DNA of 64,000 nt from a virus. Where the stretch lies: positions 1 through 64,000 of the IMG/VR virus record IMGVR_UViG_3300045988_180412, one strand, 5' to 3'. A program made the position numbers and the translations under genes. Numbering within the stretch: position 1 is the first letter of the stretch; every line of letters begins with the position of its first letter. Under the pieces are notes generated by a model. It made no database searches and was not told the DNA's origin. It saw only the letters and a list, made by a program, of their open reading frames with translations. This document shows, in pieces, positions 32,334-62,331 of this stretch.

Positions 32334-32352
32334 TTGGAGTTATTAAAACTTG

Positions 32353-32424
32353 TAGCGGCGACAGGACTCGAACCTGCGACCTGCGGGGAATGAACCCGCC
32401 GAGCTGCCTCTGCTCCACACCGCT
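32353..32424 (-). tRNA. tRNA with CAU anticodon (Met, fMet or Ile2 cannot be told apart)
   Basis: Hand-folded cloverleaf. Acceptor AGCGGTG/CGCCGCT, D arm GAGC-AGAGGCA-GCTC, anticodon arm GCGGG-TTCATTC-CCCGC, T arm GCAGG-TTCGAGT-CCTGT. No encoded CCA. Position 37 is an unusual pyrimidine. Confidence 0.85.
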
Positions 32425-44879: not shown

Positions 44880-44928
44880 TTATTACTCTAAAACCCCTTT
44901 CTCCAATAAACAAACTACTCAACCAACT

Positions 44929-45123
44929 TCATCTCCAACTCCCCCTCTCCCCCCACAAAAGAAGAAGAAAAACCACGCCGACAAAAAAAACCAAACCACT
45001 CAGCCATACCCCAATCAATCTAAACTCGTTCAACACTTTCAGATCAATCAAAACCACGCTCAAACCACAAATCAACCAATTTAACCAATCAGCTCCATAA
45101 ATAATCCGGATTAAAGCAAACAT
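44929..45123 (-). CDS. possible small membrane protein (may be an artefact of the G-poor tract)
   Basis: 64-aa hydrophobic ORF in compositionally skewed DNA. Confidence 0.3.
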   Translation of the reverse strand: MFALIRIIYGADWLNWLICGLSVVLIDLKVLNEFRLIGVWLSGLVFFVGVVFLLLLWGERGSWR

Positions 45124-45204
45124 AACTCGTCAAGATTAAAACCAATCAAGATATTCCAATCAAAATAAACCCGTCAGCCACGCAAACAACCAACACGGCT
45201 CTGA

Positions 45205-45212
45205 CAAAATTA
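45205..45212 (-). promoter_or_regulatory. candidate leftward -7 box (TAATTTTG on the minus strand)
   Basis: CAAAATTA on the plus strand. A second candidate, TAAATTTG, lies at 45516-45523. Confidence 0.3.
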
Positions 45213-45734
45213 ATAATCAAAAACCAATCACCAAATATCCAAACATCCAAATTTTCTAAATTTAATCCTTTATTTATATTTATAATACTATAATACTATA
45301 ATATATACTATACTAACTATGTATATAGTTAGGATAGTTTCTCGCCTTTTCCTTAAAAATTTTTTTTAAGGCGAGAACTTTTCCCCGAAAAATAATACAC
45401 TCATACATATTCACTAAATAATATATTACTAACCAAATAGTTATATGTGTGTAGATTGGTGTGTATGTCTCCCCAATTTACCCCCTTTCGTGTACATAAA
45501 ATCACCTTTTTACCCCAAATTTACCCGATTTTTTATCCCAAAAATACCCCCTTTTCACCAAAAATCAACCACCATCCCCAAAACACCAAAATAACCTCCC
45601 ACAACAACACCCTCAACAACCCCAAATAATCCCATATTATCACAATCCCCATAGAACTTCTCTAACTACATTATCTGTCTTATCTAAATTTGGTTTACTC
45701 AAAAGTCAACCTGTTTTAGGACGACACAATCACC

Positions 45735-45829
45735 CATACACAACTAAACCATACACAACTAAACCATACACAACTAAACTAAACTAAACCAAACTAAACT
45801 AAACCAAACTAAACTAAACCAAACTAAAC
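45735..45829. repeat. two abutting 15-bp tandem arrays (CATACACAACTAAAC x3, then TAAACTAAACCAAAC x3.3)
   Basis: Read directly. Confidence 0.9.
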
Positions 45830-45837
45830 ACTCATCT

Positions 45838-45872
45838 CACAATCCACAATCCACAATCCACAATCCACAATC
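45838..45872. repeat. 7-bp tandem repeat CACAATC x5
   Basis: Read directly. Confidence 0.9.
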
Positions 45873-46261
45873 CCTTTATAATCCCTGTCTCTAACTTCTG
45901 ACCGCTCTTAAATCATACTCTTTTCTGCTCTTTTCTATTCTTTTGCTCTATTCTACTTTCTCCACTCTACCTCTCTTTTACCCTATTTTCAAAGCACTTT
46001 AATCGCGCATAACTTGCTGATGAGCAATCATAACTTTCTGATAATCAGTTGTAACGCATTGACAATCAATTGGTTATACCCAAATTTTAATAAAAAAATT
46101 TAGAATGGACGCACCTCCAAACCCCAAAAAAATCGGCTTTTTGACCCCCCGCACCCCTATATTTTTTTTGTAATTCATGATAATCAATGTGTTTGGGCTA
46201 ATGTATCGTTCGCCACTCCACTCCGAACCGTATTTGTAACTGTCTGAAAATCAGGCAGTTA

Positions 46262-46598
46262 CGTGTTTTTGCGTGTTTTTTACGCATTAATCATTTCCCG
46301 GCCGTCCCCACATCCTCCAAATTTACATAATCGTGGATTATAAGCCGGTTTGCGATTATCGTTTGCGTTTATTTTGAAATATGCTTATTAAAATCAAGCG
46401 TGATTATCTGTTTAGATCCGGAACGTTTTACGATTTAGCATGATTTGCATTTGCTAAAATCAAGTTTGCGCCGTTGTTGTTTTTGCGTGAAAGATACGCA
46501 AAGTTATTGAGAGTTGTTTAGTGGATTAATTATGTGTAAAATTTACGCAAAGCGTTGATATTGCCGGGTTGTGTATTTTTGTGTGTGTTATACGCAAA
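46262..46598. promoter_or_regulatory. operator-like array of TTTGCGT / ACGCAAA heptamers, including two N7-spaced inverted repeats
   Basis: TGCGT-N7-ACGCA at 46270-46286. Perfect TTTGCGT-N7-ACGCAAA at 46482-46502. Single copies at 46362, 46545 and 46592. Confidence 0.5.
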
Positions 46599-46695
46599 AT
46601 TTGGCTGTCTATGTCTGTTTTTGTCTATTAGTTAAATAATGTGAAATTGCCCGAAAATAATTGCTTAAATGCTTGACTTAATGAAAAATAGTCCG

Positions 46696-46703
46696 TACCT
46701 TTG
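46696..46703 (+). promoter_or_regulatory. -7 box TACCTTTG for the rightward early operon
   Basis: TAnnTTTG match 59 nt upstream of ATG 46762. Same octamer as upstream of terL. Confidence 0.5.
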
Positions 46704-46761
46704 CATGTAGAAAAGGGGACGAAATAAGCCCTATATATAACACTTAAAAAATCAAATCAAA

Positions 46762-47434: not shown

Positions 47435-47478
47435 CACCCGGCCGGTGCTTTTGGCGTGTTCGACTCGCGCCCGGGGTG
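47435..47478 (+). ncRNA. tRNA-like minihelix (acceptor-like stem plus T-arm)
   Basis: CACCCGG...GGCGTG-TTCGACT-CGCGCC-CGGGGTG. The T-arm is nearly identical to the one at 61074-61090. Confidence 0.4.
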
Positions 47479-47584
47479 CAAAGAAACAGTCGGCCCGGCG
47501 ACTATAAACAGGCATTAGGCCGTGCGCGTGGGCGGAAAATCCGCCCGGTTGTACTAAATAAATAAATCCTAAATAAATACAGCT

Positions 47585-51968: not shown

Positions 51969-53138
51969 CTACCGCTTACCGTAAAGCACCCAATCAAGCA
52001 CTCGCCGATTAGCTTCGTCCACTTTGGCGTTGTCATAGTCGATATAAACATCCGTAATCGCAACACCGAAGGAGTGGCCTAATGCTTGGCTTATAATATC
52101 TTTTGGTATGCCAATACTGTATGCTATGGTCGCCCATGAGTGCCGCGCCCAATACAGCGTTAAATCATCACGCCCGGCACACTTTCTAAGTGCTGTGGAG
52201 ACGGCATTGCACATAGCATGTCGGGTACTCCACATGTCCGCAAACGTAAGCAACCGGCCATGCTGGTCTGACTTGTAGCGGTTTATTATTTCCAACGCTT
52301 CCGGCTCAACCTTGATACTGTACTGCTTGCGCGTCTTACAGCGCTCATACTCGATTCGACCATCAGTCGTTAAGCATTCAAGCCGAAGCATGTCTACACT
52401 ATTAATGCCGATAAGCATAAACGACAACTTAAAGACATCAAGTGCGACACGTGCGCGAGTACTACTTGGCGTAAGCGCAAATATAGTACGTATGACATCA
52501 ACTGGCAGCGAGCGTTTACGCGTTTTCGGTCTCCGTACAATTCGGGGCAATTGGATAAACGGATCGCGGTCTATAATCTCATTGCGTATAGCCTCGCGAA
52601 TAACCGCGTGGATACAGAACATATAATTGGAGATTGTGCCCAAGCTATAATCTTGACTGTATAACCAATTCAGATAGCGGCGCAATAGGTTATAATCAAT
52701 CTCTTGTATTAGCATATACTCTACATTCGCCTCATAACGCATTAGCGCATTCAAAGCGACCCTGTAACACTCTTGTGTCGCTTTGCGGCGGCGGCTTTTC
52801 ATGAAGTCGCGATATAGCGTAACAAACCGACATTCTTTTTCTATCTGTCGCCCGAACAGCTTATTGGCAACACGCTCTTTAATTTCGGCGACATCCATAA
52901 ATCGACCGCCTTGTTGATATATCTCCATTTTAAGCGCGTCTAACTGCTTAATCCAATAAGCTAAGACATTCGCAAGACGTTCGAGACGCTTAGGCGGATT
53001 AGGCGACAGCGCGAGGTCTAAGTCAAGCGGAGGCAAGTACATATCTGTTGCGAGTTCGGCCTTTCGGCGGTTGTTGGTGATGCGGATACGGACGTTGTTA
53101 CATCTCCGTTCATCGCATACAAGCTTCATTGTTATCAT
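51969..53138 (-). CDS. int: tyrosine recombinase / phage integrase
   Basis: 389 aa. SAM-like N-terminal domain. C-terminal YWARHSWAT...LGHS...DVYIDYD (R-H-R-Y type catalytic pattern). Confidence 0.9.
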   Translation of the reverse strand: MITMKLVCDERRCNNVRIRITNNRRKAELATDMYLPPLDLDLALSPNPPKRLERLANVLAYWIKQLDALKMEIYQQGGRFMDVAEIKERVANKLFGRQIEKECRFVTLYRDFMKSRRRKATQECYRVALNALMRYEANVEYMLIQEIDYNLLRRYLNWLYSQDYSLGTISNYMFCIHAVIREAIRNEIIDRDPFIQLPRIVRRPKTRKRSLPVDVIRTIFALTPSSTRARVALDVFKLSFMLIGINSVDMLRLECLTTDGRIEYERCKTRKQYSIKVEPEALEIINRYKSDQHGRLLTFADMWSTRHAMCNAVSTALRKCAGRDDLTLYWARHSWATIAYSIGIPKDIISQALGHSFGVAITDVYIDYDNAKVDEANRRVLDWVLYGKR

Positions 53139-54947: not shown

Positions 54948-55502
54948 TTATTTCGCTTCGTCTTTTTTCGCGGCCTTTGCTTCCGCTCGCCTGCGCCTCA
55001 TCGCCTCTTTAAGTTCATCTTTCTTTTGCCTTTCTTCTTCGGCGCGAGGCTTGTAGCGACCGGCAATACCGGCAAACCCCTCGATGATTGCTAAAAGGCG
55101 AGAAATCTGTTCGTCTTTCTCTTTTATCTCGACTGATAACGCCTCGACCTTACGGATAAGTGTTCGCATTAGGTTTTGGTCGCTTTTGCTTTTAGCGGTA
55201 TAAGACGCCGAGCCGCTTCCGTTGTTAACAGCCGAATGGGCAACGCCACCACGGATGTTAATTTCGTTGCTATCGGTGATTGCAGGATGTTCGGGCAGAA
55301 GCATATCGCCCTCGCCCGTTTTCAGCCACTCGATATTGAGAATCGGGAAGCGCTGACGGATTTTTTCAAACATCAGCGGACGACTTGTTGCTTTTATTTT
55401 AGTCCCTACGCCACGGGGCATACCGCACTCCTTTTCGAGCTGATTTATAGGCATATCCAGCGTTGCGGCAAAGTGTTTAAGCCTATCTACGGGTGTGTCC
55501 AT
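54948..55502 (-). CDS. CI-like repressor (N-terminal HTH, coiled-coil C-terminus)
   Basis: 184 aa. ...LKHFAATLDMPINQLEKECGMPRGVGTKIK... phage CI-repressor-type HTH. Divergent from the rightward operon. Confidence 0.7.
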   Translation of the reverse strand: MDTPVDRLKHFAATLDMPINQLEKECGMPRGVGTKIKATSRPLMFEKIRQRFPILNIEWLKTGEGDMLLPEHPAITDSNEINIRGGVAHSAVNNGSGSASYTAKSKSDQNLMRTLIRKVEALSVEIKEKDEQISRLLAIIEGFAGIAGRYKPRAEEERQKKDELKEAMRRRRAEAKAAKKDEAK

Positions 55503-55558
55503 TGTGTTAATGATTGTTAAATATTTGCGCTTTTCTTGCTTTTAATGAATTTTCGCCG

Positions 55559-55566
55559 TAACTTTG
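55559..55566 (+). promoter_or_regulatory. rightward -7 box TAACTTTG
   Basis: TAnnTTTG match. Confidence 0.4.
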
Positions 55567-55639
55567 CCCTCGAAATCGAAACTAACAGGCAAAACGAGGG
55601 CGGACAGCGTATAAAACGCCACCTCAATATGTTCAAAGG

Positions 55640-55647
55640 CAAATTTA
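55640..55647 (-). promoter_or_regulatory. leftward -7 box TAAATTTG (repressor promoter candidate)
   Basis: CAAATTTA on the plus strand. Faces the rightward box (convergent arrangement). Confidence 0.4.
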
Positions 55648-55699
55648 CGCCGTTCAAACGAGTTCGCCAAATTATTAACAATCATTAACCGCAAAAAAA

Positions 55700-55897
55700 A
55701 TGAAGCTAACGCAAGACATAGTGCGCAACTTGATGCCGGGGCAAACGCTTTCCGTCCACTGCGAAAGCGTGGATGAGCTGAACGCCGCGCAACAAACTGC
55801 GTACCGTGGACGGCGCGAACATCAAAAAAGCACGAAAGTGCGCGTTCAGCGTGATTCCAAAACGCTGACGCTAACACTGACGTGCAGCGCGGTTTGA
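55700..55897 (+). CDS. hypothetical protein in the Cro position
   Basis: 65-aa ORF, first gene of the rightward operon. Confidence 0.5.
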   Translation: MKLTQDIVRNLMPGQTLSVHCESVDELNAAQQTAYRGRREHQKSTKVRVQRDSKTLTLTLTCSAV

Positions 55898-55911
55898 TAA
55901 GTTATTAAGTT

Positions 55912-56112
55912 ATGACGATTTATCAACCTGACATCCGCGACAATGCGCTTATGACGGTCTTACAGGCCGCTAAGGTCTTAGGCGTAAGCCAACAGACCGT
56001 GCGCAGAGCATTAAAGCGCGGACGACAGGACGGCGGAATGGACGCAGCTCAACGCTGCCGCCGACTAAAAGTGTCCGGGGCTGAGGTCAAGCGCTTCTGG
56101 CGCGAACACTAA
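55912..56112 (+). CDS. HTH DNA-binding protein (excisionase/MerR-like)
   Basis: 66 aa. MTVLQAAKVLGVSQQTVRRALKRG. Confidence 0.6.
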   Translation: MTIYQPDIRDNALMTVLQAAKVLGVSQQTVRRALKRGRQDGGMDAAQRCRRLKVSGAEVKRFWREH

Positions 56113-56690
56113 GTCCGAGGAGAGGCAACGGCCTTACGGTTGCCACGCGGGACTCGCGAATAGCGAGATACAGAGACTGCGATAGTGCCTGCTGATGAGC
56201 ATACAGTACGGGTAGCACCCGAAAGCTCCGCCGAGGTCGGCGCTCCTTGAAGCCAAATGACGGCTTACAAGTGAACCGGCAAACCAAGCCGCTGCAATAC
56301 CGAGCGGCACGACATAGGGAGAGGCGAAAGATACCGGAACAGAGCAATAGGCGTTGACATGTCCGCCGACAGCATCCGGGGCAAATGTGCGGAGAGTAGC
56401 GTCTCCGCGATGACATACGGCGGCATAAACAGACGTCAATGGCGAGGTACAGCCTTTGCCGCCGAGGTATTGACAAAGATTAGAAACTTTGGTTTCTATA
56501 TATATAGCCGCAGCTCGCGAAGGCGTTAAGACCCCATCAGAACCTGCTGCGGCACTAAGGCCGACCAACCCTGACCACCCTCGAAAGTATGCGCGATAGG
56601 ATAGCCGCGCATCAGGACATCGCAGACAGCTTTGGCTGTGCTATTCGGAATTTGAGGACGCTGTGCGCGGTTCGACTCCGCGCCGAGGGA
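56113..56690 (+). ncRNA. candidate large structured ncRNA ending in a tRNA-like module
   Basis: ~580 nt between same-strand genes. GC-rich. Only antisense, Arg/Cys-rich ORFs. Many local helices. The 3' module is at 56578-56690. Confidence 0.35.
56578..56690 (+). ncRNA. tRNA-like module 1
   Basis: Acceptor CCCTCG/CGAGGG. D-like hairpin ATGCGCG-ATAGGATAGC-CGCGCAT. T-arm CGCGG-TTCGACT-CCGCG preceded by GGAC. No 7-nt anticodon loop. Confidence 0.45.
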
Positions 56691-56718
56691 CACAACATCA
56701 ACTAACACAAACAAGACA

Positions 56719-57060
56719 ATGAGGAAATACAAATTAACAGACGAAACAATTCAAATCACGCGTAACGGTGTGGAAGTAACGCTACACCAAATTGAGGCGC
56801 TGCGAGACTTCGGGGTCGTGAAAGCAGGCGAGAAAGGCGGCTTTATAGAGCGCGAGGCTAACCTAAGCCACGATGGTGACTGCTGGGTCTACGACACCGC
56901 AAAAATTTATGATAATGCCAAGGTGTACGGCAACGCATGGATATTCGGCTGCGCCGAGGTGTACGACACTGCCGAGGTGTACGACAACGCCAATATCTAC
57001 GGCTGCGCCAAGGTGTACGGCACGTCTAAGGTATACGGTGACATCGTGCTGTCTAAGTAA
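56719..57060 (+). CDS. hexapeptide-like repeat (beta-helix) protein
   Basis: 113 aa. Repeats VYDTAKIYDNAKVYGNAWIFGCAEVYDTAEVYDNANIYGCAKVYGTSKVYG. Confidence 0.65.
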   Translation: MRKYKLTDETIQITRNGVEVTLHQIEALRDFGVVKAGEKGGFIEREANLSHDGDCWVYDTAKIYDNAKVYGNAWIFGCAEVYDTAEVYDNANIYGCAKVYGTSKVYGDIVLSK

Positions 57061-57093
57061 TAAAGTAATAAATAGCCCTATTAATAATCAACT

Positions 57094-57318
57094 ATGAAAT
57101 TCGTAAATAAAACGATGATTGCAGCCGCAACGATACTGACATCCGTATGCGGCTTTTTCATGGCTTTTGCCTACGGCTGGACAAACCAAAATTATTGGTT
57201 TGTTCTCGGCGGTCTTGTTCTAATGGTTGCGCCGTGGCTTATAGCCGTGTTTATCGGCAAATTAGGGAAATTGAAAGAAATAATATTCCCCGACCCACAA
57301 GATGAGGATATATACTAA
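57094..57318 (+). CDS. small membrane protein
   Basis: 74 aa with two TM helices. Confidence 0.55.
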   Translation: MKFVNKTMIAAATILTSVCGFFMAFAYGWTNQNYWFVLGGLVLMVAPWLIAVFIGKLGKLKEIIFPDPQDEDIY

Positions 57319-57455
57319 ACATATGTCTAAACAGTGTTATTTTTAGCTATTTTTATTCCATGGCGGAGAGACCGAGAGAGGTCGTAAAATCCGCCAACAG
57401 GATTGGTTGCGAATAGCTTAGCCGATGCCGTCCGTGAGAATAGCATCGGCTTAAT

Positions 57456-57543
57456 GGGCATGGCAGACCGCAAGCATCGTTGCGAGTATTACTCGTGCGT
57501 CAAACAGCGGTGCTTGTCTGCGGTTCAACTCCACAGATGCCCA
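57456..57543 (+). ncRNA. tRNA-like module 2 (88 nt)
   Basis: Acceptor GGGCAT/ATGCCC. Hairpins CGCAA-GCATCG-TTGCG and CGAGT-ATT-ACTCG. T-arm TGCGG-TTCAACT-CCACA with one mismatch. Confidence 0.4.
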
Positions 57544-57625
57544 CGCGAACACTCATATGCAGTAAGTTGATTAGACATCAGACATTAGACGCTTGGTGGT
57601 CTGCGAAGATAGCCAAGCATTATAC

Positions 57626-57735
57626 GGAATAACAAAGCACGGATAACGGATGCCCGTGCAAGGCTTGACGGCGACTTGACAGTGCGCGACCGAGGCCTTT
57701 TTAAGCTATCCCGAGTTCGATTCTCGGGTATTCCT
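57626..57735 (+). ncRNA. tRNA-like module 3
   Basis: Acceptor GGAATA/TATTCC. D-like hairpin GCACGG-ATAACGGATGC-CCGTGC. Perfect T-arm CCGAG-TTCGATT-CTCGG. Confidence 0.45.
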
Positions 57736-57772
57736 CAAAGTGTTCATATAGGGTTTATGTATTTTCGGCATT

Positions 57773-57818
57773 ACGGACGGGCTATTGCATGGTTAGTCCG
57801 TCCGTGTGCCGATTTTTT
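57773..57818 (+). terminator. possible terminator after module 3
   Basis: ACGGACGG/CCGTCCGT stem. The T6 run starts 7 nt downstream. Confidence 0.4.
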
Positions 57819-57828
57819 ATTAGTATTC

Positions 57829-58182
57829 ATGGGAAAAAAAACTGTTACAGAAGCGGAGCTTGCGTATATCCGCCAAAACGCTTCGACCATGAGTTCGCGC
57901 GAAATGCGCATAGCGCTTGGCCTGCAACACTCGTGGCAACTTCGCTATCGCGCAAGGCTTGCAGGTGTAAAGTTGCAACCCTCGCTGCGCAAAAACGCGC
58001 ACCTGCAACGCAGGTTGTCTCAACAAGAGAAAAGCTGGCTTGCGGCAAATTATAGGCACGTAACCATGCACTTTATACATAGGTTCTTGGGGATAAGCTG
58101 GAAAGCGTTATACCGAGAACTCAACGCAATGGGATTCTCTAAATCCCGACCCCTGACAAAAAACCAACCAACTAAACAATAG
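57829..58182 (+). CDS. hypothetical basic protein with two HTH-like segments
   Basis: 117 aa from ATG 57829 inside ORF 57676-58182. Confidence 0.55.
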   Translation: MGKKTVTEAELAYIRQNASTMSSREMRIALGLQHSWQLRYRARLAGVKLQPSLRKNAHLQRRLSQQEKSWLAANYRHVTMHFIHRFLGISWKALYRELNAMGFSKSRPLTKNQPTKQ

Positions 58183-60304: not shown

Positions 60305-60512
60305 GGTCGTAATCCCTGCACAAGAGAGTGCGAAACAGGCGCGTCCTGTTCGGGCGCAAATCATTAATGTTATGGAGGGCGTGTGGTCTAAGATAAGACG
60401 GCATACGAATATTAACCTTAGATTAGGTTAGTGCCAAATAAGCCGTGTGCAAATTCGGAATTAAGTCCCGACACGCCTGCAAATTTACCATTGTTTGTTT
60501 AACTATATTATT

Positions 60513-60686
60513 ATGAAAGAGTTGATTAGCAAAATCTCTGAGTTGTTCGAGGTGTTTTCCTCAAACGCCGTCAAGGCGCAAGCAGGAAACAAAGCTGCCG
60601 GCGCACGCGCACGCAAAGCTTCCCTCGAAATCGAAAAAGCCTTGAAAGAGTTCCGTAAAACTTCCGTTGCCTACGGCAAGGAGTAA
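60513..60686 (+). CDS. histone H1-like (Hc1 family) DNA-binding protein
   Basis: 57 aa. MKELISKISELFEVF...GNKAAGARARKASLEIEKALKEFRK, typical of Bacteroidota Hc1-like proteins. Confidence 0.7.
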   Translation: MKELISKISELFEVFSSNAVKAQAGNKAAGARARKASLEIEKALKEFRKTSVAYGKE

Positions 60687-60702
60687 GTAACGCGGAACGC
60701 CT

Positions 60703-60766
60703 GCGGTGCGGAGTTCGTTTGGGATGCCGCTAATTAGCGGACAGGTTCGACCCCTGCCGCACCGCC
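60703..60766 (+). ncRNA. tRNA-like module 4 (short: 9-bp acceptor-like stem plus T-arm plus one hairpin)
   Basis: GCGGTGCGG/CCGCACCGC. Hairpin CCGCT-AATT-AGCGG. T-arm CAGG-TTCGACC-CCTG. Confidence 0.4.
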
Positions 60767-60847
60767 AACATAGGCAAGTCGATTACTATTACCATATTGA
60801 ATTATGTTCGTTTTTCTGCGCCGTCTGTGAAGATAGCGCGGTTTTAT

Positions 60848-60916
60848 GGGCGTCATGGTGAAACCCTTGTTTTTAGGCTTTTCAAGGGTATTGCGGTTCG
60901 AGTCCGCTTGCGCCCG
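60848..60916 (+). ncRNA. tRNA-like module 5
   Basis: Acceptor GGGCGT/TGCGCCC. Hairpin CCCTTG-(13 nt)-CAAGGG. T-arm GCGG-TTCGAGT-CCGC. Confidence 0.35.
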
Positions 60917-60996
60917 CACATAGGTTATATGTATGATGAGAAGAGTAAAGTGGATTTTGGAGTGTCGGGCTTGTGAAAGTCCGGCGCTCGTTTTTC

Positions 60997-61098
60997 GGGA
61001 CAACAAGCCGTGGATGCACGGAAGCCCACGGACGCCATCCTTCTGTCAGTGGCGTTGCAGGACACTGCCGCAAGCGCGTTCGACTCGCGCTTGTCCCA
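60997..61098 (+). ncRNA. tRNA-like module 6 (102 nt; perfect 7-bp acceptor and 5-bp T-arm)
   Basis: GGGACAA/TTGTCCC. GCGCG-TTCGACT-CGCGC. Hairpins CCGTG-GATG-CACGG, GACGCCAT-(10 nt)-GTGGCGTT, GCAG-GACA-CTGC. Too long and lacks a 7-nt anticodon loop. Confidence 0.5.
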
Positions 61099-61157
61099 CA
61101 TAAAGTTAATATTTCTTAAAAAATACGCCATTATTTGTTTGGCAAGATGCAAACCAT

Positions 61158-61165
61158 TAAATTTG
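61158..61165 (+). promoter_or_regulatory. -7 box TAAATTTG, with TTTG about 20 bp upstream
   Basis: Part of the 19-mer TTAAATTTGCGGCATCCAA, repeated at 62842. Confidence 0.55.
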
Positions 61166-61171
61166 CGGCAT

Positions 61172-61341
61172 CCAAACGGCAATTGACGCAAGTCTTTTGT
61201 CGCCAATAAAATTTCTACTATTGTAGATAAAAAGGCGGAAGTGTCGCGCCCTTCGGGGTTGCGTGAATTGAAACGCGATAAGCAAAGTAGGATTAAATTT
61301 TCCTTTCGCCGAGGGCAGGATATTATTCCTGCCCTTTTTTT
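61172..61341 (+). ncRNA. candidate sRNA (~170 nt) with its own promoter and strong terminator
   Basis: Bounded by the -7 box and by GGGCAGGA-TATTAT-TCCTGCCC plus T7. Contains a C(UUCG)G-type hairpin. No convincing ORF. Confidence 0.5.
61313..61341 (+). terminator. rho-independent terminator
   Basis: 8-bp GC-rich stem followed by TTTTTTT. Confidence 0.85.
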
Positions 61342-61485
61342 ATTCTCTAAGCGACTGACGCATTTGCGTTGGCCGCTTTTTTTAGCCAATTACCGACGAG
61401 GGGGATGTAGCGAAAACGCGACACCCTCCACAAAGAGTGGTATACAAGCAATGATTTCCAACCACCCACATAAACATAAAACAAA

Positions 61486-62331
61486 ATGATAAACAATATC
61501 GACAATTTATTTATGCCGGAAATAAACGAAACAAAGGCGGTGCAGCCACTTAAAGAAGTGGAAGTGGTAGGGCAGTCGTTCATTATCTACGGAACACCCG
61601 AAGAACCTTTGTTCAAGGCGAAAGACGTTGCAACTTTTATTGGGCACTCTGATGTGTCTATGATGATGCAGACGGTGGATGATGACGAAAAGCTGACCCA
61701 AACAATGTTTGTATCAGGTCAAAATCGAAACGTATGGATGCTGACAGAAAATGGTTTGTACGAAGTTCTTATGCAGAGCCGCAAACCAACAGCCAAACTG
61801 TTTAAGAAAGGCGTCAAGAAGATTCTACGCGAAATCCGAATGACCGGTGGCTATATCGCCGCTAAGGACGATGATTCGCCCGAGGTGATAATGGCAAAGG
61901 CGCTACAAATAGCCCAAGCCACCCTTGCACGACAAGAGTCAAGACTGCAACAACTCGAAAACACCAACACGCGTAACGAACAAACCATCTTAGAGCAAGC
62001 GCCAAAGGTGGACTACTACGACACCACGCTGCAAAGTGTTAATACTATGACCACAACCCAAATTGCAAAGGAATTGGGAATGGACGCGCACAGCCTTAAC
62101 AAGCAACTTAAACAAGCCGGCGTAATCTTCCGTCAATCGGGGATGTGGATGATGAAACAACCTTATGCAAGCTGGAATTTATCCGCGACACGCACACAGA
62201 CCTATACGCGGTCTGACGGAAGTATCGGGTCGTCAATGTATACCGTTTGGAACGAACGCGGACGGCGCTTCATCCACGCGTTGCACGACAATGGGTTTAA
62301 CGCCCGTAAAGCAAAGAATGCTATTGTATAA
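61486..62331 (+). CDS. antirepressor-type protein (Bro-N domain plus KilAC/ANT C-terminal domain)
   Basis: 281 aa. ...FIIYGTPEEPLFKAKDVATFIGHSDVS... Bro-N pattern. C-terminal ...YYDTTLQSVNTMTTTQIAKELGM...LNKQL... KilAC pattern. Confidence 0.8.
   Translation: MINNIDNLFMPEINETKAVQPLKEVEVVGQSFIIYGTPEEPLFKAKDVATFIGHSDVSMMMQTVDDDEKLTQTMFVSGQNRNVWMLTENGLYEVLMQSRKPTAKLFKKGVKKILREIRMTGGYIAAKDDDSPEVIMAKALQIAQATLARQESRLQQLENTNTRNEQTILEQAPKVDYYDTTLQSVNTMTTTQIAKELGMDAHSLNKQLKQAGVIFRQSGMWMMKQPYASWNLSATRTQTYTRSDGSIGSSMYTVWNERGRRFIHALHDNGFNARKAKNAIV

Follow-up and report, generated by a model that had tools for sequence, protein, structure and literature searches.

A probable large structured RNA with a tRNA-like 3' module in the early operon of a phage

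Introduction

Large, highly structured RNAs of bacteria and phages are few in number, and most lack a known function. ROOL and GOLLD, molecules of about 500-800 nt with many helices and without a known function, are carried by phages and prophages, often beside tRNA genes, and form homo-oligomeric complexes (PMC12286853). The phage RNAs C4 (P1/P7) and CI (P4) are small, and are cut by RNase P from the transcript of an early or immunity operon via a tRNA-like fold. The known substrates of RNase P include the phage C4 and M3 RNAs, tmRNA, viral tRNA-like structures, and polycistronic mRNAs (PMC11143913). The t-elements of plant mitochondria are tRNA-like sequences that set mRNA ends, and are thereby a precedent for boundary elements (PMC1920247). 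The tRNA-like piece at the 3' end of MALAT1, a long non-coding RNA, defines that end via RNase P, and enzymes of tRNA maturation in general recognise the acceptor/T stack together with the elbow. Finally, in the tRNA-like domain of tmRNA and in the bacterial Y RNA YrlA, the T-arm, the acceptor, and the GG of the D-loop mimic the elbow while the anticodon arm is replaced.

The locus considered here lies within 64,000 nt of viral DNA (hereafter the window; positions 1 to 64,000 of IMG/VR record IMGVR_UViG_3300045988_180412), and very likely gives rise to a functional structured RNA of about 575 nt from the + strand at 56113-56689. This molecule resembles ROOL and GOLLD in each of the respects listed above, oligomerisation apart; those RNAs, however, are found mainly in Firmicutes or in lake samples rather than in Bacteroidales, and the phage RNA carries a tRNA-like unit that is fused and non-canonical, and matches neither of their covariance models in sequence or structure. 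C4, at about 77 nt, is far smaller, and no antisense target longer than 11 nt exists for the phage RNA within the operon. With t-elements and MALAT1/mascRNA the tRNA-like module shares an acceptor and T-arm mimic, the absence of a decoding function, and a location inside a longer transcript at a unit boundary. Those elements are organellar or eukaryotic, whereas the phage module keeps a D-like hairpin and a predicted elbow, is present in at least five copies, and is cleaved by inference only. The architecture common to tmRNA and YrlA is also seen in the module, yet the acceptor of tmRNA joins the 5' and 3' ends of the entire molecule, which contains a tag ORF, while the phage acceptor closes over 112 nt and no tag ORF is present; in YrlA, both ends lie in the Ro-binding stem. 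The kind of element is known, both as large phage RNA and as tRNA-like processing signal, but the combination of the two and their repetition in a phage operon are new.

A Non-Coding Gap Between Two Phage Genes

The gap that contains the RNA extends from the stop codon of the upstream + strand gene (56110-56112) to the ATG of the next + strand gene at position 56719, and has a G+C content of 55-59%, as compared with about 45-50% in the surrounding sequence. Upstream lies a gene (55912-56112, +) encoding a 66-aa HTH_17/HTH_29 protein (excisionase/MerR-like), and downstream a gene (56719-57060, +) encoding a 113-aa beta-solenoid-like protein of phrog_5070. The longest + strand ORF within 56113-56718 is 56 aa, and the long ORFs of the gap, of 129 and 144 aa, lie on the antisense strand and are rich in Arg and Cys. 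Among the homologous copies described below, each + frame of every copy holds 3-13 stops, indels of 1, 2, 4, 8, 16, and 23 nt are present, and the antisense ORFs shift frame from copy to copy and are interrupted by frame-breaking indels; across 10 sequences, no reading frame kept on either strand was found. The interval 56113-56718 is non-coding. The original prediction of a ~600-nt, GC-rich, ORF-free gap between same-strand genes is borne out in full; its statement that the only ORFs are antisense and Arg/Cys-rich holds for the long ORFs, given the + strand maximum already noted, and the conserved coding frame that it had named as a refutation did not appear.

Public gene calls place antisense 'proteins' of 159-164 aa on the RNA at several related loci (L011-L015, L036; P0001, P0002). 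Proteins of the P0001/P0002 type are spurious products of an antisense strand rich in both G+C and ORFs; their only value is as handles for fetching homologous DNA.

Distribution and Conservation

Homologues were obtained by searches with the flanking proteins, by one metagenome pattern scan, and by use of the antisense ORF as a protein query. Nine further distinct copies were recovered (L015, L016, L011, L037, L008, L019, L038, L039, and L036, the last being the most divergent), so that the comparison set consists of 10 sequences from ~6 lineages, all closely related. The longer homologous contigs (up to 53-63 kb) derive from gut-type metagenomes; ENA samples containing contigs of this set are ERZ945656, ERZ28563558, and ERZ15610113. 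In every distinct copy for which the upstream flank was checked (phage contigs), the RNA lies directly 3' of the HTH gene. Conservation is concentrated in the RNA: its core at 56300-56550 is 94-100% identical to that of relatives, while the flanking genes are 30-90% identical.

Searches of wider collections yielded little. Similar DNA was not detected in INPHARED by blastn or megablast, IMG/VR pattern scans with three core patterns returned the same single contig every time, and a single pattern scan of GTDB species representatives produced three chance matches without homology, while a JGI metagenome pattern scan identified 4 true loci together with 5 chance loci. A probe from the neighbouring gap matched nothing but L028, a coding sequence of no relation; no related RNA is present in L001-L007, which carry the downstream phrog_5070 gene; and a protein search with the antisense ORF of L036 found nothing. 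The RNA family is rare, and may therefore be a lineage-specific oddity with a modest role.

One homologue of the HTH protein is annotated as originating from 'Prevotella sp. CAG:873'; in that MAG the gene adjoins an integrase fragment, within a prophage remnant that lacks the RNA. More broadly, the upstream HTH gene has homologues, 76-100% identical, in bacterial chromosomes as well, within small islands or prophage remnants that lack the RNA (L029-L035, L041), where they adjoin an AbiEi_4 gene and host genes or sit in the 'Prevotella sp. CAG:873' MAG. These chromosomal homologues serve as a pointer to the host lineage, and the phage is a temperate phage of gut Bacteroidales of a CAG-873-like lineage.

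Conserved Structure of the RNA

Folding of the single sequence is only mildly better than that of shuffled controls, with z = -2.5 for the + strand and -2.4 for the - strand; since these values are modest and similar on both strands, the case had to rest on comparison. To this end a curated structure of 24 helix segments and 127 pairs, derived from alifold runs and visible co-changes, was tested on the 10-sequence alignment (A5). Pairing is possible in 96.3% of the paired cells of the curated structure, as compared with 93.9% in shuffles (0/500 reach the observed value) and 36-46% in slid controls. Similarly, 20 curated pairs have changed on both sides, against 9.1±1.7 in shuffles (0/500 reach 20) and 1-5 in slid controls. 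Within the body, such double changes affect P1 (3 pairs), P2 (1), P2a (2), P5 (2), P6 (1), P11 (1), P13 (2), and P14 (1), as well as P3, in which C-G becomes U-A in five sequences; within the 3' module they affect the acceptor (1 pair, UA to CG), the D-like stem (3), and the variable hairpin (2). The curated helices contain 94 G·U cells but only 16 A·C cells, an asymmetry which identifies the + strand as the one that is transcribed and folded. Structural variation is also seen as the exchange or loss of entire elements, P2a being cleanly deleted in five homologues, and P13 and the P14 loop being replaced by other hairpins in L036. Most of the changes come from a single sequence, L036, and for that reason an all-against-all covariation screen proved too noisy. 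Shown by these comparisons, and by those in the following sections, are the + strand, the conserved structure, the tRNA-like architecture, the repeated module family, and the operon context.

According to the curated structure, the body of the RNA (56113-56577, +; about 465 nt) begins with P1 (56124-56144), followed by P2 (56146-56181) with the optional P2a (56153-56167), P3 (56197-56228) with P3a (56209-56221), P4 (56229-56242), P5 (56244-56274), and P6 (56288-56308). An invariant junction (56309-56329) then leads into the nearly invariant central domain P7-P12 (56330-56471), which is closed by GAUACC/GGUAUU (P7), and beyond it lie P13 (56482-56497), a UAUAUAUA stretch (56498-56506), P14 (56507-56553), and a linker (56554-56577). 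Change within the central domain is almost nil and, the P11 pair apart, consists of single changes compatible with G-U pairing. Separate folding runs produced partly different folds of this domain, with competing pairings of CGGCGGC, and because almost nothing varies there the internal pairing of P7-P12 is uncertain and its fold unverified.

The RNA contains two copies of a purine-rich octamer, GGAGAGGC, one at the 5' end (56119-56126) and the other in the invariant junction (56318-56325). In relatives the first copy reads AAGGAGAGG, which is Shine-Dalgarno-like but is not followed by a start codon; this lineage seldom uses such sites.

The tRNA-Like 3' Module

The RNA ends in a tRNA-like 'top-half' module of 112 nt (56578-56689, +), which scores 133.7 bits with model R1. 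It is composed of a 6-bp acceptor (CCCTCG 56578-56583 / CGAGGG 56684-56689), a D-like hairpin (ATGCGCG...CGCGCAT, 56589-56612) with 7 bp and the loop ATAGGATAGC, a variable hairpin (56626-56639), and a T-arm (GCGCGG-TTCGACT-CCGCGC, 56665-56683) with its T-loop at 56671-56677. Several features of canonical tRNA are retained. Firstly, acceptor and T stem together (6+6 bp, readable as 7+5 in L011 and L015) make up the canonical 12-bp coaxial stack. Secondly, the accompanying 7-nt T-loop satisfies UUCRANY, reading UUCGACU, UUCAACU, or UUCGAGU, and thus keeps U54 U55 C56 R57 A58. Additionally, the D-like loop keeps GG, which, as inferred from sequence alone, would be able to form an elbow with the T-loop. 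The lower half of a tRNA is another matter: a 5-bp anticodon stem with a 7-nt loop is not present, its position being occupied by an irregular UUUG-capped hairpin, and in L011, L037, and L038 the module interior is a different, also covarying set of hairpins while the acceptor, D, and T parts stay. Neither in the region nor in eight related loci did ARAGORN call a tRNA or tmRNA, and at E<=10 the region has no match to RF00005, the Rfam tRNA model. The module does not encode CCA, and its acceptor opens with a C-G pair preceded by A at -1; bacterial RNase P prefers G+1/U-1.

Downstream of the module is an A/C-rich leader (56690-56718, +) without an assigned helix, which starts with the discriminator-like A56690 and runs up to the ATG at 56719. 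Homology among relatives breaks down directly after GGGACA, and an A-rich linker of 25-60 nt is found there in all relatives. The phrog_5070 gene itself is not common to all of them, a different gene following the RNA in L008 and L038. A processing element of the t-element or mascRNA type is expected to present an acceptor/T mimic at a unit boundary in a longer transcript, and this expectation is met, because the module ends 29 nt before the ATG at 56719, or, for other modules, because they sit in ORF-free gaps on the operon strand, and no internal promoter or terminator is present.

Repeated Modules Along the Operon

The module at 56578-56689 is one of at least five in the operon. The combined acceptor and T-arm motif is found five times on the + strand of the window, as compared with 0.46 times per strand in shuffles (0/200 reach 5) and 2 times per 284 kb of unrelated DNA, and relatives carry 3-5 such motifs each, on the operon strand only. 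Two of the additional modules lie at 57456-57542 (+; GGGCAU...CUGCGG-UUCAACU-CCACAG-AUGCCC) and 57626-57734 (+; GGAAUA...CCCGAG-UUCGAUU-CUCGGG-UAUUCC, with the D-like loop AUAACGGAUGC), and three others share the gap 60688-61485, at 60703-60765 (+), about 60850-60915 (+; T-arm around 60893-60907), and 60997-61097 (+). In relatives these other modules covary, as illustrated by the changes from GGAAUA/UAUUCC to GGAAGA/UCUUCC and from CCCGAG/CUCGGG to CUCGGG/CCCGAG. Further support can be found in the covariance model R1, built only from orthologues of 56578-56689, for which 57623-57738 ranks second, matching at full length with 19.3 bits (rough E 0.009); the modules at 60893, 60994, and 57515 are among the next weak matches (E 1.2-3.2).

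The two gaps that hold these additional modules have features of their own. The first, 57319-57825 (+), spans about 500 nt and is likewise conserved and free of ORFs. It contains the modules 57456-57542 and 57626-57734 along with a hairpin at 57590-57615 (loop GGUCUGCGAAGAUAG), and displays many compensatory changes in relatives (alignment A4); the listed ORF 57676-58182 probably has its true start at about 57826. The second belongs to a pair of ORF-free stretches, 60305-60514 and 60688-61485 (+), located on either side of a 57-aa Lys/Ala-rich ORF (60515-60687). Within 60688-61485, the three tRNA-like modules are accompanied by a second GUCUGUGAAGAUAGC hairpin (60818-60841), terminator-like sites at 60960-60989 and 61311-61336, and a -7 promoter motif at 61158. 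This gap is located upstream of an antirepressor gene (Bro-N/KilAC, 61486-62331) in a layout that recalls c4-icd-ant of phage P1. In P1, c4 lies upstream of ant, and likewise one module group is placed just upstream of the antirepressor gene.

Elsewhere in the window, a T-arm hairpin (47453-47471, +; GGCGTG-ttcgact-CGCGCC) is situated 16 nt before a Pistol self-cleaving ribozyme. The ribozyme (47488-47553, +) is full-length, scores 63.4 bits (gathering score 34.5), lies in an intergenic gap, and adds to the repertoire of the phage an RNA-cutting device of another kind. The one canonical tRNA of the phage, tRNA-Met (CAT) at about 32352-32424 (-), also lacks an encoded CCA and is followed by A-CAAG, resembling the A-CA after most tRNA-like modules.

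Operon Context

A Bacteroidetes-type -7 promoter motif, TAACTTTG, is found at 55559-55566 (+) within a divergent control region for the repressor and the early operon, where it faces another such motif on the - strand at 55640. Relatives conserve 55550-55650 to 82-100%, and the motif at 55559 is likely the start of the transcript that carries the RNA. No further -7 motif was found on the + strand between it and 57187, and no terminator-like site in 55400-57400. The absence of a promoter or terminator around the RNA indicates that it is an internal part of a polycistronic early transcript. At the end of the first operon segment, a conserved and covarying terminator-like hairpin with a U-run can be read from the alignment at 57763-57815. 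A sigma-70-like TTGACA...TATATA inside the RNA was rejected as a promoter, having the wrong spacing and not being reported by the scan.

The early operon runs away from a candidate repressor gene (54948-55502, -; 184 aa) that has no Pfam or PHROG match, and whose role is inferred because of its divergent position. An integrase with a Phage_int_SAM_5 domain is encoded at 51969-53138 (-), 3 kb away, with three genes between it and the RNA. Downstream of the RNA are homologues of RecT/PD-(D/E)XK, whose domains were taken from syntenic genes in related loci, as well as the antirepressor and RusA.

Comparison With Catalogued RNA Families

At Rfam 15 gathering scores, the whole window contains only the Pistol ribozyme (47488-47553) and tRNA-Met (32353-32424, -). 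Within the RNA region, a search at E<=10 found no tRNA, tmRNA, ROOL, GOLLD, C4, hammerhead, or riboswitch, and searches of 44-64 kb and of three homologous loci likewise returned no relevant family. The RNA family is absent from Rfam 15 and is uncatalogued. The original prediction of a large structured RNA of open class, for which it had proposed covariation analysis of homologues and an Rfam search including the ROOL, GOLLD, and tmRNA models, is upheld on both counts, covariation being clear (the 20 double-changed pairs given above) while no Rfam family, none of the three named models included, and no conserved frame emerged. Also upheld is its description of a 3' tRNA-like module with an acceptor-like stem, a D-like hairpin, and a T-arm, now placed at 56578-56689. 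The resemblance that it drew to ROOL and GOLLD is thematic only (phage-borne, large, beside tRNA-like sequence), and membership of either class failed. It overlooked the further modules of the same kind that are scattered along this early operon, a family whose existence shifts the likeliest role of the module towards transcript processing.

Several other identities were considered and rejected. A hammerhead ribozyme, suggested by CUGAUGAG...GAAA at 56192-56224, has no Rfam match and no conserved core: GAGC and GCUC form a helix that covaries (C-G to U-A in five sequences), and in a core test of G12 A13 A14 and of stem II after CUGAUGA, the would-be G12 is C in L016, L037, L038, and L039. For tmRNA, the acceptor closes locally (56578/56689) with covariation, there is no tag ORF, and neither ARAGORN nor Rfam made a tmRNA call. 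An antisense RNA of the C4/CI type is opposed by the lack of an Rfam C4 match and by the finding that only 10-11-mers, at chance level, are complementary to 46.7-64 kb. A DGR or repeat template has no second copy in the window, and an 'ACATAGG' motif after the modules is not enriched.

A Model for Transcript Processing

It is proposed that the tRNA-like modules are entry sites for RNase P and RNase Z which punctuate the early transcript and release the body. This proposal, the best of the readings considered, is purely inferred, no transcript data being available, and is held with somewhat less than even confidence. According to the model, the RNA would be made within the polycistronic transcript and the tRNA-like module would be recognised by host tRNA-maturation enzymes, such that RNase P would cut at A56577/C56578 and RNase Z or exonucleases would cut after A56690, with CCA addition possible. 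The predicted products are a ~465-nt body with a defined 3' end and a small tRNA-like RNA, the downstream ORF being left with a short A-rich leader, and at least four other operon modules would be the same device, acting as punctuation marks. The body, in turn, would be a stable RNA acting on a conserved partner, although there is no direct evidence of body function; candidate partners may be RNA polymerase, with put-like read-through of the 57763-57815 hairpin, or the RNA itself as a self-assembling ROOL/GOLLD-like scaffold. Contact with a conserved partner is suggested by the invariance of the body; where the body lies suggests in addition that it serves early gene expression, perhaps by allowing the downstream terminator to be read through. 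The processing reading is weakened by the C-G first acceptor pair with A at -1 and by the lack of an encoded CCA.

A bolder reading, which is clearly less likely than not, likens the punctuation of the operon to that of a mitochondrial genome: at least five mimics of the tRNA top half, together with the pistol ribozyme, would dice the early transcript, one of them defining the 3' end of the ~465-nt RNA (cf. mascRNA/MALAT1), and the released RNA would be a new large phage RNA class acting on a conserved host machine. Were this true, it would be a first for bacteria or phages.

The almost invariant 200-nt core presents a new and tractable case among RNAs of this size, and does so in a host lineage (CAG-873-like gut Bacteroidales) that is abundant and poorly studied. 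The repeated modules suggest that phages may borrow the host tRNA-maturation machinery as a means of cleaving operon transcripts and producing stable RNAs. In that case, the annotation of early transcripts would change, such gaps now being filled with spurious antisense ORFs (P0001, P0002), and the modules could furnish simple, portable RNA-processing tags for Bacteroidales, organisms for which classical Shine-Dalgarno-based expression tools are lacking.

Alternative Explanations

The alternative that survives best, and that remains possible, is a cis-acting regulatory leader or processive antiterminator of the put kind. The nascent RNA would stay with the elongation complex, or sense a signal, such that polymerase reads through terminators into recombination and delayed-early genes, and the tRNA-like end would be no more than a structural cap. 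In favour of this possibility, the position matches that of nutR/putR in lambdoid phages, after cro-side HTH genes and upstream of the 57763-57815 hairpin; further terminator-like sites exist at 60960 and 61311; the RNA has neither promoter nor terminator of its own; and contact with a conserved host machine would agree with the invariance of the core. Known put and EAR elements are 5-8 times smaller than this RNA, however, the downstream gene differs between relatives, no riboswitch family matches, and the recurrence of top-half modules at four other sites, one of them after the last gene of the first operon, is left unexplained.

Less probable is a free-standing ornate RNA of the ROOL/GOLLD kind, that is, an RNA-only multimer in lytic growth whose tRNA-like part serves not as a cleavage signal but as an integral domain or as the place where tRNA-binding proteins dock. 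Size, number of helices, phage location, and tRNA-like association are all similar, and the sequence core is very conserved. Nevertheless, no model matches even at E<=10, no evidence presented here bears on oligomerisation, and the exchangeable interior of the module is more readily reconciled with a generic recognition signal than with an integral domain.

Also doubtful is the suggestion that the modules are tRNA-mimic decoys or hijackers, which would soak up or recruit host factors that bind the acceptor/T half (CCA-end-modifying defence toxins, CCA-adding enzyme, EF-Tu) in the service of early anti-defence or takeover. The presence of several copies in the early operon and the conservation of elbow and 12-bp stack, with the anticodon side free to vary, are consistent with such a role, and early regions commonly hold anti-defence functions. 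Against it, no link to a defence or counter-defence gene was seen, the conserved 465-nt body is unexplained, and decoys acting stoichiometrically against abundant tRNA pools would need very high expression to be plausible.

Finally, the proposition that the locus is no RNA at all but an antisense protein gene or a DNA site (origin, attP, packaging) draws on antisense ORFs of 129-179 codons, predicted by metagenome gene callers, and on an integrase 3 kb away, but it can be all but dismissed given the frame-breaking indels and shifting antisense frames, the compensatory substitutions, the excess of G·U over A·C that fits only + strand RNA, the absence of iterons or direct repeats in the region, the three genes between RNA and integrase, and the presence of a likely origin-like repeat region elsewhere (44.9-46.7 kb).

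Another ORF-Free Stretch of the Window

The repeat region just mentioned is a 1.9-kb ORF-free stretch at 44880-46760, the first part of which is made up of A/C-rich tandem repeats (AACTA x17, CACAATC x5, 15-mer x4) and the second of repeated TTTGCG/TACGCAAA-like motifs. The stretch, which is partly conserved in L016, may be a replication origin or a genome-end region.
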